A stretch of 64,000 bases of DNA from a virus (IMGVR_UViG_3300050132_000084:1-64000); one strand, 5' to 3'; numbered from the stretch's first letter, positions 28,259-31,902 are shown. Numbers and translations are program-made. The notes: generated by a model not told the origin, from the letters alone.

Positions 28259-29065
28259 ATGAAAACATTTAAACAATTCCGTGAAAGGGTGATACCAGTT
28301 TCCATGATAGATCACGGATACGAAAGACAAATACCATTTGATATATGTGAACATGGTGACGAAAGACAAATACCATTTGATATATGCGAACATGGTGACG
28401 ACAGACACCTAATGGTGGAAGGTTTGATATCAAAATGGGCAAACACATCAGGTTCTCCAATAGATGAAACACACCCAGATTTACAAAAACAGCACCATGA
28501 TAATTTCACTCATGATGATAAAGATTCTATCGGAAGATATGTTATGGGTGGGCTATATGCGCATCAAGGTACAGGAAGTGCACCATTAAATAAACACCTG
28601 ATAAAATCACATGAAGATAACCATGAATCACCATCCAGTTTTACTATACGGGGGGAACATGGTAGGTCTGATGTTCATTATGATCTTGATAAATTAGACG
28701 AAGCAACAAACAGGAATAAATTAAAAGAACCACTTACCACTTATAGTGGTTTTAAACATAATCCATCACCAAAAACATCCGATGGAGTTACGTATTTTCC
28801 CGCATACACATCAAGCTCGCCTAATAAACATATAGCATTAAAATATGCACACCCCGTAGATGGAATCAGACATATAATGAAAATTGATCATGGTGTTGGG
28901 CATACTGGTGCTTATATAGGAAATAATCAAAATATCACACCATTTTATGATGACGAATTTATCATGCCAAGAAATACACATTTAAAAATAAATCCCGTAC
29001 CAGAAGAACACGAGAACTCTCATGGAGAAAAATTCCATGTCTGGTCGGCAAAGAGATTAACATAA
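28259..29065 (+). CDS. CTS-tagged Alt-like ADP-ribosyltransferase (paralogue 1)
   Basis: Leader MKTFKQFRE; YFPAYTSSSP (STS-like) and DDEFIMPRNTHLKI against T4 Alt NYVSTSLSP and ECEVILPRGTMLKI. First motif is TTYSGF rather than YRG. The track start at 28223 is a TTG upstream of the conserved RBS+ATG. Confidence 0.65.
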   Translation: MKTFKQFRERVIPVSMIDHGYERQIPFDICEHGDERQIPFDICEHGDDRHLMVEGLISKWANTSGSPIDETHPDLQKQHHDNFTHDDKDSIGRYVMGGLYAHQGTGSAPLNKHLIKSHEDNHESPSSFTIRGEHGRSDVHYDLDKLDEATNRNKLKEPLTTYSGFKHNPSPKTSDGVTYFPAYTSSSPNKHIALKYAHPVDGIRHIMKIDHGVGHTGAYIGNNQNITPFYDDEFIMPRNTHLKINPVPEEHENSHGEKFHVWSAKRLT

Positions 29066-29075
29066 AGGACAACGA

Positions 29076-29603
29076 ATGACCACACAATTAATATCATTTG
29101 TAGGATTAAAACCAACTGGATTTTCGTTGGGTATATCACGATATCCTGATACAACATTTCCAATTCAAACTGTTATACTACCATCAGTGTCCATGGGTTC
29201 TGCAATCCAGAATACACCACAGATGACGATTAAACACCCCGGCGAAAAAGCTACCTATGCACCACTATCATTGACCTTCTTGTTGAATTCTGATATGTCA
29301 AACTATATTAGCTTGCTTGGATGGATGAAACAAAATGCTGCACCACAAGGCCCAAGTGATATAGCCACACTCCAACAAATGTTGGCACAGAATACCACTA
29401 ATGATAATGGACAAGAGTATTTTAGTGATATAACTTTGGGATTGCTTGATAACAACAATAACCCAACAGTTGGGTTTAAATTTGTTGATGCTTTTCCAAC
29501 ATCATTAAGTGCTATCACAATGACAACTACAGCAAGTGGAATGGAATATTTGACATGTGATGCAGTATTCGATTACACTAATTTTGAAGTTGTATCACAG
29601 TGA
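29076..29603 (+). CDS. g3: Tail-tube-fold protein, probable T4 gp3 homologue (tail tube terminator/sheath stabiliser)
   Basis: gp19-family-like pattern F.LGISRYPDT.F.IQTV.LPSVSMG...PGEK.TY.PLSLTFLL..DM.NY. Sits in the g23-g3-uvsY position seen in marine T4-like phages. Confidence 0.55.
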   Translation: MTTQLISFVGLKPTGFSLGISRYPDTTFPIQTVILPSVSMGSAIQNTPQMTIKHPGEKATYAPLSLTFLLNSDMSNYISLLGWMKQNAAPQGPSDIATLQQMLAQNTTNDNGQEYFSDITLGLLDNNNNPTVGFKFVDAFPTSLSAITMTTTASGMEYLTCDAVFDYTNFEVVSQ

Positions 29604-29618
29604 CATTTGTGGTATAAT
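29590..29618 (+). promoter_or_regulatory. Early promoter (TTGTAT-N17-TATAAT, TGTGGTATAATG box)
   Basis: tgtggtataatg at 29608-29619; ttgtat at 29590-29595. Confidence 0.6.
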
Positions 29619-29665
29619 GGTGAGTGTATTGTGCTGTATCATAGCACGTTTATTATGAGGAAATA

Positions 29666-30109
29666 ATGGCTACATTGGTAGAAATATTGGATGAATGGGA
29701 TAAGGATTCATCCATAAATGAAGCGGAACTTGGACATGAGGCCACACGTAATCCAATGATTCATGCAAAGTACGTCAGGATGATTTCACAGACGAAATTA
29801 TCTTTACGTAAGGCTGAGTCAGATTATTTGACGGTACGTAAGACCAAATGGCGGTACTATCGTGGTGAAATGGGTAAAGCTGAATTAGATGAATTAGGAT
29901 GGAATCAATATCAAGGTAGGATTCCAACCAAAAGTGATATGGATGAATTCTTGAATTGTGATCCAGATTTGATTCGATATACAGATAAAATTCAATATTT
30001 TACTGTTGTCAAAGAAACACTAGATTCAATCCTCAAAGAGTTGAATTCACGTACATGGAATATTAAAACTGCGGTGGACTACGCAAAAATGATGAATGGG
30101 ATAAACTAA
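29666..30109 (+). CDS. uvsY: Recombination mediator UvsY
   Basis: Size and pattern L..E....P....KY......K..L...E.....V....YY.GE...ELD parallel T4 UvsY; synteny next to uvsW. Confidence 0.8.
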   Translation: MATLVEILDEWDKDSSINEAELGHEATRNPMIHAKYVRMISQTKLSLRKAESDYLTVRKTKWRYYRGEMGKAELDELGWNQYQGRIPTKSDMDEFLNCDPDLIRYTDKIQYFTVVKETLDSILKELNSRTWNIKTAVDYAKMMNGIN

Positions 30110-30110
30110 A

Positions 30111-30368
30111 ATGGATATTATACAACACCCCGCATGTACAGAAACATTATGCGCACCATCGGATATGCAAGATGGAAGCTGTGATAGCCTTCCTGTGGCA
30201 GTTACAGAAGATGAACATGGATATTGGTCGGTTTCATTTTGGAAGCCAACACAGGATGATCTAGACGTTCTGAATGATGGTGGTACTATTGCATTATGGG
30301 TACGTGCAAAAGGTAGGCAGCATCCTGTCGTTGGATTGGGTGTGGACTCATGGAAAGAAGAACAATGA
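30111..30368 (+). CDS. Hypothetical small protein (higher GC than its surroundings)
   Basis: 85-aa ORF. A decayed copy of its last ~10 codons plus the RBS lies upstream of 28259. Confidence 0.55.
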   Translation: MDIIQHPACTETLCAPSDMQDGSCDSLPVAVTEDEHGYWSVSFWKPTQDDLDVLNDGGTIALWVRAKGRQHPVVGLGVDSWKEEQ

Positions 30369-31018
30369 AAACATTTAAACAATTCGTATTTGAAATGGCA
30401 ACACCATCAGATGCTATAAAGAGTAAAACATATTACCATGGGACATCAAGTCGTGCCGCTGCATTGGGAATTGCTGAACATGGTATATTACCACCAGAAG
30501 CACCAAAGAAATCGGGGGATTTAACTCCTGTAGCAGGAAAAGTATATATTACACCACACATCCATTATGCACAAATTTATTCTTTGGGTGGTGATATTGC
30601 AGGTTCGAATTGTAAAATGTCACACCATCAACATGAGGATTATGGGTATGTATTTTCTGTTCATGGTAGCAAGTTGAAAGATGTACAACCAGATGAAGAT
30701 TCTGTTGGAGAAATGGTAAATAATGGAAGTCCAATATGGCTACAACATATGGCTAGGAATCATCTACACCCAACAACATTTAAAAAAATTAAAGACGGTG
30801 AATATTCCAAATTTGCCAGTGGTGGTAAACAACTTGTTAGAAAAATGACAGATACACAGAAATCAGACATCATCAATGCCGGTGCACATGTGGCACACAC
30901 AGGATCACTAAAACCAGATTCTGTTTATAGAATACATAAAGATAAAATACCATTGTTAAAACGAGATGGATCAAATTTCTTTGATCATGCAGAAAAAATT
31001 GACATAAAGGACATATAA
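30365..31018 (+). CDS. CTS-tagged protein with YHGT motif (possible H-Y-E-class ADP-ribosyltransferase/Tpt1-like fold)
   Basis: Leader MKTFKQFVFE, then TYYHGTSSRAAALGIAEHGILPP and GKVYITPHIHYAQIY, resembling the H and Y motifs of PARP/Tpt1-type ARTs. Weak assignment. Confidence 0.4.
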   Translation: MKTFKQFVFEMATPSDAIKSKTYYHGTSSRAAALGIAEHGILPPEAPKKSGDLTPVAGKVYITPHIHYAQIYSLGGDIAGSNCKMSHHQHEDYGYVFSVHGSKLKDVQPDEDSVGEMVNNGSPIWLQHMARNHLHPTTFKKIKDGEYSKFASGGKQLVRKMTDTQKSDIINAGAHVAHTGSLKPDSVYRIHKDKIPLLKRDGSNFFDHAEKIDIKDI

Positions 31019-31902
31019 TGAAAACATTTAATCAATTACGAGAAGCCGTTGGTGAACCAGATGTAGTCCAAGGTGCAATCGTTAATGGTGTTCCTACAGC
31101 ATTGGTTCAGCATGGTTCACATGCCTTTAAGGATCAACCAGATGAACCCCTAGAGCAAGGTGCAATGGTAGATGGTGTACCATGTGCAGTCGTATTCCAT
31201 GGTAGCCACAGTGTTCCAAAGACTAGGAAACTTGGTGAAAAATTTAGTGTTGATCATTCCACAGTGAAACATTGTTATTTTGATGAAAATGATAATACCC
31301 ATATTCATCCTGATATCCATCAAGTTGGTAAACTGTTACAACATACCCAAAAGCGCGAAGGGTTAGACAGTCACCACCTGAATCAATATTGTTCTGGTAG
31401 TCGTTGCTTGAATAAGGCTTTGTATGATGCCCACAAGAATGGTAAAGATACACCAAAGTCCGTGACTGGTTTCGGAGTGGAACACAATGTCCGTAGGCTA
31501 GATGATGCTATCCACAGGAACAAATTACACAAGGATGTCCACCTGTATAGTGGTGTTGGCTTTGAACCGTCTAAGCTGGCATCTAATCATCCTGAAGGAC
31601 ATATTTACTTACCTGCTTACACTTCAACCAGTATTAATAAAAGTGTCGCACGGAACTTTGCCTCAAATCAGGGTGAGAATAAGCCAACACAATTAAGACA
31701 AAATGGTGTGATGGGACATGTGCTTCATATTCATGCTAAAGCTGGACAACCGGCAGCATATGTTGATCGTGAATCAACATATAAACACGAGAATGAAGTA
31801 TTATTGCCACGTGGAACAACATTGAAGATACATGGACATAGTGAACATGAAGACGAATTTGGCGATGTTTATAGGGTACACCATAGTACAATAGTAAAAT
31901 GA
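31018..31902 (+). CDS. CTS-tagged Alt-like ADP-ribosyltransferase (paralogue 2)
   Basis: Leader MKTFNQLRE; YLPAYTSTSINK (STS) and HENEVLLPRGTTLKI (E-x-E) match T4 Alt. First motif is HLYSGVG instead of YRG. Confidence 0.7.
   Translation: MKTFNQLREAVGEPDVVQGAIVNGVPTALVQHGSHAFKDQPDEPLEQGAMVDGVPCAVVFHGSHSVPKTRKLGEKFSVDHSTVKHCYFDENDNTHIHPDIHQVGKLLQHTQKREGLDSHHLNQYCSGSRCLNKALYDAHKNGKDTPKSVTGFGVEHNVRRLDDAIHRNKLHKDVHLYSGVGFEPSKLASNHPEGHIYLPAYTSTSINKSVARNFASNQGENKPTQLRQNGVMGHVLHIHAKAGQPAAYVDRESTYKHENEVLLPRGTTLKIHGHSEHEDEFGDVYRVHHSTIVK

Follow-up and report, generated by a model that had tools for sequence, protein, structure and literature searches.

Can an ADP-ribosyltransferase (ART) of the R-S-E type do without the arginine for which the R of this signature stands? 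This question is raised by two genes, ART1 and ART2, located in the first 64 kb of IMGVR_UViG_3300050132_000084, an uncultured T4-like myovirus whose genome record comprises 150,145 bp with terminal repeats; these 64 kb, the whole stretch of 64,000 nucleotides that was analysed, are called the window below. A first-pass annotation had described the two genes as Alt-like ARTs in which the first catalytic Arg is replaced by Ser. Both open reading frames (ORFs) and all the ART1 and ART2 motif strings it quoted, including D-D-E in ART1, are present as described (Table 1). ART1 and ART2 are paralogues which are 28% identical over their full length (BLASTP E-value, 8e-21). The annotation had counted two paralogues, and both are real, but there is a third one with Y-S-G outside the window, at genome 101353-102201 (-). 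It carries FHAYSGTGF, LPAFTSTS and E-R-E, its Ser codon is TCT, and it scores 45.1 bits against PF03496.

All three paralogues pass the curated cut-off of PF03496 (23.4 bits). ART1 on its own gave no match in PHROGs, NCBIfam or a phmmer search against PDB. The AlphaFold2 model, which was made for ART2, has a mean predicted local distance difference test score (pLDDT) of 86, and more than 94 from residue 80 on. Its best Foldseek matches are C3bot1, C3cer, Plx2A, Certhrax, CDTa and Ia (E-value about 1e-10, probability 1.00, target-normalised template modelling score 0.60-0.66), and the fold of ART1 was assigned by homology to ART2. Thus the profile cut-off, the C3-like fold, the S-T-S motif and the catalytic Glu of this family are all found, and what is missing is the Arg of strand beta-1, i.e., the R of R-S-E. 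The H-Y-E signature of diphtheria-toxin/PARP-like enzymes is also absent, since Ser stands at motif I in both proteins and STS at motif II. ART1 and ART2 are C3/VIP2/Alt-type ADP-ribosyltransferases.

Three kinds of alignment agreed that Y-S-G stands where the motif I Arg is expected, as had been claimed. In the phmmer search against PDB, VHLYSGVG of ART2 was aligned to IITYRRMG of BECa, VQVYRG of C3larvin and VYVYR of C3stau2. When a profile of 19 family sequences was compared by hhalign with the catalytic region of T4 Alt (translated from NC_000866), Y-S was placed on Y-R of Alt and STS on STS (probability 85%), and E-x-E-(F/V)-L-L-P-R-G was placed on E-M-E-V-I-L-P-R-G in the same alignment. 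A profile of 137 sequences again put Y-S-G on Y-R-G of C3larvin. This profile matched only R-S-E ARTs in PDB (CDTa, C3larvin, C3stau2, BECa, Plx2A, C3cer, Ia, Certhrax, VIP2, C3bot, Vis, SpvB, VsdC and HopU1), and several of the local alignments go no further than the Tyr, which is what a profile that disfavours Arg in the next column would produce. On these alignments, Ser (S163 in ART1, S178 in ART2) occupies the motif I Arg position of C3larvin, BECa, C3stau2 and T4 Alt. One detail of the first-pass annotation has to be corrected: T4 Alt does not read (Y/F)-R-G but Y-R-S (ITLYRSQRM) and NEMEVILPRGLMVKV, and the string ECEVILPRGTMLKI given for it was inexact.

It might be argued that the alignments are an artefact, in which another Arg takes the motif I place in space and the Ser is merely adjacent to it, since about 22% of the clade described below has Lys or Arg three residues past the Ser (position 181), where ART1 has K166. 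However, position 181 is Gly in ART2 and in the third paralogue, no conserved Arg or Lys is found within three residues on either side of the Ser, and the register is agreed by the three independent methods together with the predicted strand, residues 174-180, in which S178 lies. We regard such an artefact as very improbable, and motif mis-registration is effectively excluded. The profile alignment that had been proposed as a check revealed no other Arg in the motif I position, and the ART fold was upheld by the AlphaFold2 model and Foldseek.

Table 1. Positions of the ART genes, their motifs and associated genes in the window
Feature	Position	Strand	Basis
ART1 (P0001), 268 aa, more diverged C3/VIP2/Alt-type ADP-ribosyltransferase paralogue	28259..29065	+	PF03496, 24.8 bits; BLASTP to ART2, E 8e-21
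ART1 capsid-targeting-type leader, MKTFKQFRE	28259..28285	+	resembles T4 IPI MKTFKEF and IPII/IPIII MKTYQEFIAE
ART1 predicted prohead-protease site before the catalytic domain, M-V-E54	28412..28420	+	aligned to family column [LIV]-x-E74; cleavage predicted
ART1 motif I, Y162-S163-G164 (in LTTYSGFK), Ser codon AGT	28742..28750	+	alignment
ART1 motif II, S185-S186-S187 (in FPAYTSSS), S-T-S equivalent	28811..28819	+	alignment; sole natural variant synonymous
ART1 motif III, D231-D232-E233 (in DDEFIMPRNTHLKI)	28949..28957	+	catalytic Glu retained, first Glu replaced by Asp
ART2 (P0002), 294 aa, C3/VIP2/Alt-type ADP-ribosyltransferase	31018..31902	+	PF03496, 58.3 bits; phrog_802 (Alt-like), E 1e-11; AlphaFold2 model; Foldseek C3bot1, E 1.6e-10
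ART2 capsid-targeting-type leader, MKTFNQLRE	31018..31044	+	likeness to T4 IP leaders
ART2 predicted prohead-protease site, L72-G73-E74; predicted mature enzyme about residues 75-294	31231..31239	+	conserved [LIV]-x-E
ART2 motif I, Y177-S178-G179 (in VHLYSGVG), Ser codon AGT, strand 174-180	31546..31554	+	three alignments and AlphaFold2 model
ART2 motif II, S203-T204-S205 (in LPAYTSTS)	31624..31632	+	S203 in 242/243 family domains
ART2 motif III, E258-N259-E260 (in HENEVLLPRGTTLKI)	31789..31797	+	E260 in 244/244, E258 in 236/244 family domains
Prohead maturation protease, gp21 homologue, candidate leader processor	21520..22173	+	phrog_207, E 2e-66
P0003, leader-tagged, 217 aa, predicted ART-superfamily fold, Y-H-G-T motif; stop overlaps ART2 start	30365..31018	+	AlphaFold2 model, pLDDT 94; Foldseek
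DraG/Tri1-like ADP-ribosyl(arginine) hydrolase, divergent	32095..33192	-	phrog_6572, E 2e-34; TIGR02662, E 2e-19, and NF041672 (Tri1), E 2.5e-17, both under cut-offs

A clade without the motif I arginine

The loss of the Arg is not restricted to this phage. A HMMER scan of 1.84 billion representatives collected 919 proteins of the family at E<=1e-3, and 304 at E<=1e-10. The best 150 of the 919 hits and near homologues were aligned to the hidden Markov model of the family, giving a set of 246 domains. Over these domains the motif I residue is Ser in 187, His in 37, Thr in 13, Ala in 5 and Arg in only 1. In the same set, conservation is high at S203 (242/243), E260 (244/244), E258 (236/244), N132 (233), Y124 (216) and G179 (227), so that the hallmark of pseudo-enzymes, a catalytic Glu or NAD-site residues that are lost or vary freely, is not seen. 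A pattern scan of IMG/VR, which was seeded with the clade's own PAYTSTS motif and is therefore biased towards the clade, added 57 loci; all 68 distinct domains on viral contigs have S, T or H at motif I and none has R. The clade is large and is so far known from metagenomes only, and we found no description of an Arg-less ART subfamily in the open-access literature.

Codon usage and the tree speak for a long history of this state. In the 57 IMG/VR loci, Ser is encoded 24 times by TCN and 6 times by AGY, Thr by ACN and His by CAT. Because a switch of Ser between TCN and AGY needs two substitutions, most simply via Thr, a hydroxyl residue must have been held at motif I for a long time. A FastTree phylogeny of 239 domains, for which the motif I column was masked, requires at least 24 state changes, compared with about 53 when the labels were shuffled; by residue, they are Thr 11, His 7, Ala 5 and Arg 1. 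Arg can be reached by one nucleotide change from AGY-Ser, CAY-His and ACR-Thr. A general avoidance of Arg was considered as the cause of the loss and ruled out, as the Arg content of the family is 3.8% and that of the genome 3.6%. Taken together, the non-Arg state throughout the clade, the use of both Ser codon families, at least 24 changes with Arg arising once and the ordinary Arg content indicate that Arg is selected against at motif I, rather than lost by drift or by a compositional trend. The earlier proposal that the Ser was selected rather than decayed is thus borne out by the residue counts, by 0/68 Arg in the IMG/VR domains, by the two codon families and by the near-invariant S203, E260, E258, N132 and Y124.

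Near-identical DNA is contained in peat metagenomes of several studies, and the Ser codons of the ARTs are identical in near-identical strains from other peat runs. In independent runs from peat and freshwater, the motif I codon of ART1 is unaltered. Other samples contain few natural variants, and all of these lie outside the ART motifs except for one synonymous change in motif II of ART1.

Some members of the family have unusual architectures. A single ORF of 2,377 aa on a 240-kb T4-like contig (L061:8001-15134, P0021) contains nine tandem Arg-less ART domains, the last of which also matches PF01129. Other poly-ARTs of 1,300-2,300 aa are among the top matches (P0022, P0023, P0026, P0028 and others), and they may be polyproteins cut by the prohead protease. 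In distant members, whose motif I reads Y-T-G-I-P-E-S, a NUDIX domain is located N-terminal to the ART domain (L060:5347-6630 (+)), and the N-terminus of L032 is similar. L026:1017-6362 (+) encodes a polyvalent protein of 1,782 aa that has an Amidoligase_2 domain and ends in an Arg-less ART domain.

Packaging and NAD+ binding

ART1, ART2 and the third paralogue start with MKTF(K/N/S)Q(F/L)R, similar to MKTFKEF of the T4 internal protein (IP) IPI and MKTYQEFIAE of IPII/IPIII. In IPIII, experiments have defined the first ten residues as a capsid-targeting sequence, and the prohead protease cuts it off after Glu (PMC9026906). The leader is found in eight ORFs of the genome and in about 100 of 139 short homologues. 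A second site, [LIV]-x-E74, precedes the catalytic domain, with E in 133 of 143 filled alignment rows, and cleavage there would leave a core of about 220 residues, as large as a C3 exoenzyme. A propeptide for the prohead core and protease, as in Alt-type packaging, is thus present at the sequence level, and the ARTs are probably packed into the head and injected. ART2 is translationally coupled to the preceding genes. The T4 late promoter consensus TATAAATA is rare in the genome, and only a loose AATAAATA was found about 100 nt upstream of ART1. Repeats are present in both propeptide regions: E-R-Q-I-P-F-D-I-C-E-H-G-D is found twice in ART1 (28300-28420 (+)), and (N/D)-G-V-P-x-A-x-V-x-H-G-S-H-(A/S) occurs twice in ART2 (31060-31215 (+)), where model confidence is low, and also in many homologues.

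The closest functional counterpart is T4 Alt, a head-packaged and injected NAD+:arginine mono-ADP-ribosyltransferase. Reviews class the T4 Alt/VIP2 family as R-S-E (PMC9503650, PMC8120803). Alt comes likewise from a T4-like myovirus and shares the catalytic family, E-x-E, STS and LLPRG with ART1 and ART2, as well as the predicted route of propeptide removal by the prohead protease followed by injection with DNA (PMC9026906, PMC9503650). However, Alt has the canonical Arg in Y-R-S, consists of 682 aa with an N-terminal part of about 400 residues that is absent from ART1 and ART2 (268 and 294 aa), has the leader MELITELFDE instead of an IPI/IPII/IPIII-type leader, and contains 1% His, compared with about 9% in the Arg-less clade; tblastn found no link between Alt and the clade. 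The best fold and profile matches are instead the C3 exoenzymes (C3bot1, C3stau2, C3cer, C3larvin, Plx2A) and binary-toxin components (CDTa, iota Ia, BECa, VIP2), which are alike in mature-domain size, the helix Y...N, aromatic-x-STS, PKG-x-x-G-A-Y and (E/Q)-x-E followed by LLPRG. They differ in that the beta-1 Arg is always present (Y/F-R-G or Y-R-R), along with a loop Arg in C3 and CDTa and one on helix 3 in C3stau2. They are also bacterial toxins, which are secreted and act on Rho or actin of eukaryotes, rather than cargo of a phage head. ART1 and ART2 are closer to the C3/binary-toxin enzymes than to Alt in sequence and fold. The label Alt-like therefore holds for the catalytic domain and the packaging logic; it does not extend to the long N-terminal part of Alt or to closest kinship. 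T4 IPI, IPII and IPIII share the leader MKT(F/Y)x(E/Q)F...E and predicted protease processing (PMC9026906), but they are small basic proteins without an ART domain, whereas in this phage the leader is joined to enzymes.

We lean, with modest confidence, towards the reading that these proteins are active, injected, arginine-directed mono-ARTs that would anchor NAD+ without the canonical Arg. What speaks for activity is that the catalytic Glu, the STS and the helix residues are near-invariant over a deep radiation, together with E-x-E and the neighbouring hydrolase gene. The ARTs would be synthesised with an IP-type leader and incorporated into the prohead core. Trimming by the gp21-type protease, after the leader and at [LIV]-x-E, would leave the catalytic core of about 220 residues. 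The trimmed enzymes would enter the host together with the injected DNA and use NAD+ to ADP-ribosylate host proteins. E-x-E is the mark of arginine-directed ARTs, in which the roles of Arg and STS have been described (PMC8120803), and because ART2 keeps E-x-E the target is most likely arginine. Of the two, ART1 is the better candidate for an altered acceptor or for weak transfer activity, judging from its D-x-E, with Asp at the first motif III position in 2/244 family domains, and from the lack of a basic residue at 195 or 197 (family numbering), the latter being Tyr.

How would NAD+ be held? The beta-1 Arg, which normally positions the NAD+ diphosphate, is permanently replaced in the clade by Ser, then His, Thr and Ala, and the nicotinamide, ribose and catalytic elements are kept. 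On the NAD side, the helix Tyr Y124, S128, N132, STS and the E-x-E/ADP-ribosylating turn-turn (ARTT) region are retained. NAD+ would be held by these retained contacts, with the Ser hydroxyl possibly helping, and candidates for extra contacts are His/Lys at 197 or 195 on the next strand, H234 and an N-terminal N-x-H motif. The remaining conserved basic residues, R265 (L-L-P-R), K270 and K242/K245 (P-K-G-x-K-G), are common to canonical enzymes too. About 15% of the clade has Y-H-G-T at motif I, still with STS and E-x-E. In H-Y-E and H-H-h enzymes, ribose hydroxyls are contacted by a motif I of this H-x-T form (PMC8120803), which hints that motif I of the clade may address the ribose rather than the diphosphate.

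His is abundant in the family (9.5%, compared with 1.0% in T4 Alt and 2.5% genome-wide). Conserved His specific to the clade are H234 (92%), H237, H175, H197, H239 and that of the N-terminal W-x-x-x-N-D-N-x-H motif. On the strand that follows beta-1, position 197 carries His in 149 of the 200 domains of the Ser/Thr type, and of the 37 domains of the His type 21 have Lys or Arg there; by mutual information, positions 180 and 197 covary with 178 (His197 with Ser/Thr178, Lys197 with His178). His as a general catalytic substitute was weakened by the observation that enrichment (8-11%) is common to unrelated leader-tagged proteins of this phage, and much of it may therefore be connected with the stay in the capsid. 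In predicted head cargo, His is 3-4 times as frequent as in the genome overall (8-11%, compared with 2.5%); examples outside the window lie at 87140-88393, 73209-73679, 95732-96298, 112467-113090 and 136407-137069. A second multi-copy family, with the start MSK(E/K/N)FLA(K/Q)YGT(P/D) and at least six paralogues, is equally rich in His.

Alternative readings

Several observations weigh against an active enzyme that anchors NAD+ in this way. Conservative swaps of the beta-1 Arg, e.g., Arg-to-Lys in detoxified pertussis toxin, lower activity by orders of magnitude. The segment F-A-K-R-K of CDTa, which we take to be the phosphate-nicotinamide loop (Arg352 in iota Ia, Arg186 in C3bot1), has its Arg facing an unconserved position of the family, and the Arg of helix 3 in C3stau2 (I-N-x-x-L-R) faces family position 136, which is hydrophobic. 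The clade thus has no conserved arginine left near the expected diphosphate site. The beta-1 Arg is regarded as essential for NAD+ positioning in the R-S-E enzymes that have been studied (PMC8120803). Among these arginines only the one of beta-1 is universal, as T4 Alt also lacks those of helix 3 and the loop. Covariation of 178 and 197 was not significant in a phylogeny-aware independent-pairs test, with 3 supported pairs, and position 197 is Tyr in ART1 and ART2, neither His nor Lys, although it is His in the nearest relatives and the third paralogue. In 50,697 GenBank phages, neither megablast with the locus nor tblastn with three members of the clade gave a clade member; three distant head proteins of Gram-positive phages were the only matches.

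Would the fold then serve a different chemistry? With the same fold and packaging, the enzymes could use another donor, such as NAD-capped RNA as T4 ModB does, NADP+ or another nicotinamide dinucleotide, or act as plain NAD+ glycohydrolases. This would fit the fact that all three arginines that contact or flank the diphosphate in C3/binary toxins are unconserved in the clade, and the richness of the family in His (9.5%) would make the site dependent on pH or metal. Motif I in the H-x-T form (Y-H-G-T) in about 15% of the clade and the fusion of distant members to NUDIX, a pyrophosphate-cleaving domain, point in the same direction, as does a T4 ART that takes NAD-capped RNA as donor (PMC9503650, PMC10468400). 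Nevertheless, Y124, S128, N132, STS and the E-x-E/ARTT region are canonical and fit ordinary NAD+ and protein arginine, T4 Alt uses NAD+ without the helix-3 and loop arginines, and the His enrichment, being common to unrelated leader-tagged proteins, may concern packaging and not catalysis. A different chemistry is unlikely in our view, although the complete absence of arginines on the diphosphate side keeps it a real rival. We judge it still less probable that the proteins are pseudo-enzymes, internal head proteins in which an ART fold without catalysis would serve to bind NAD+, ADP-ribose or a host target, or would have a part in head structure. A residue held to be essential is absent, ART1 has D-x-E and no nearby basic substitute, and three paralogues and a poly-ART relative suggest bulk cargo; but dead enzymes lose the Glu first, and here it is present in 244/244 domains, with the first Glu in 236/244, the STS Ser in 242/243 and N132 in 233/246. 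Moreover, an intact ADP-ribosyl hydrolase gene adjoins the genes, and the few natural variants in other samples spare the motifs. Of the three functional readings offered by the first-pass annotation, the pseudo-enzyme is thus argued against by the data, and both altered NAD+ handling and a different donor are compatible with them.

A bolder form of the active-enzyme reading, which we hold to be possible but doubtful, is that [S/T/H]-S-E is a further natural active-site signature within the R-S-E ARTs, whose enzymes would be fully active and bind NAD+ without a diphosphate arginine. A Ser/Thr hydroxyl or the His of H-x-T, together with His/Lys from the adjacent strand or the N-x-H motif, or possibly a bound metal, would then do the work of the Arg. 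If this is true, the beta-1 Arg is dispensable, and activity might be gated by pH or metal, so that the cargo would be quiet in the producing cell and the capsid and turned on after injection.

Neighbouring genes and meaning

The genome has a T4-like gene set (terminase, sheath, portal, gp21-type protease, scaffold, major head protein, uvsY and a uvsW-type helicase), and the major head proteins of cyanomyoviruses and Pelagibacter myophages share about 57% identity with its own. The virus comes from peat, runs with small shares having been left out of the habitat assessment. The gene order at the locus is ART1, a second tail-tube-like gene, uvsY, a small ORF, P0003, ART2, a 74-aa leader-tagged ORF and the divergent DraG/Tri1-like hydrolase. 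RNA contigs map to uvsY and P0003 only, and none over the ART genes. The second tail-tube gene (29076-29603 (+)) is short and gp19-like (phrog_45, E 1e-33), and the main sheath and tube genes are located at 15916-18688; the order ART, gp19-like gene, uvsY recurs in 12 related loci. The small ORF (30111-30368) overlaps the start of P0003. At window position 30363, one base is missing in one contig of an independent run, and read placement there is ambiguous because 30337-30385 also matches 28230-28279 upstream of ART1. The 74-aa ORF (31899-32123 (+)) has the leader MITFKQFVGE and overlaps the stop of ART2; its remainder weakly matches an HNH endonuclease PHROG (E 1.6e-4), and it looks like a leader joined onto an endonuclease fragment.

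P0003 had no sequence match in Pfam, PHROG or PDB. Its family has more than 187 proteins, with invariant H25-G26-T27, Y61 and P-D-E-D 109-112. Of the top 50 Foldseek matches of its model, nearly all belong to the ADP-ribosyltransferase superfamily (pertussis S1, PltA, cholera/LT A, TreX, CARDS, Tpt1), with a weak best E-value of 7e-3 and a probability of 0.98. On the strength of this model, P0003 appears to be a second, H-type ART packed by the same phage, so that the locus would pack two different ART types.

The hydrolase recalls DraT-DraG and Tre1-Tri1, in which an arginine-directed R-S-E ART likewise adjoins a DraG/Tri1-type ADP-ribosylarginine hydrolase. The likeness is limited, as the hydrolase is far below both equivalog cut-offs and, among 57 loci, only the three closest phages have the pairing. 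As a general rule, ART-hydrolase pairing was rejected, since a hydrolase lies within 6 kb in only 3/57 related loci.

ART classification, the recognition of pseudo-enzymes and the design of inactive toxoids all rely on the R of R-S-E, a residue taken to be defining and indispensable. This phage clade, deep and abundant, has kept everything else but has long been without the beta-1 Arg: the best 150 of 919 clusters are all Arg-less except for one domain. The locus shows an uncultured T4-like phage loading several different NAD+-using enzymes, all predicted cargo, into its head behind one leader. If they use another donor or only hydrolyse NAD+, they would represent a new activity on a familiar scaffold. 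If the enzymes of the clade are active, there would be a second way to anchor NAD+ in the ART fold, and screens based on the motif would miss or mislabel a large class of phage effectors.

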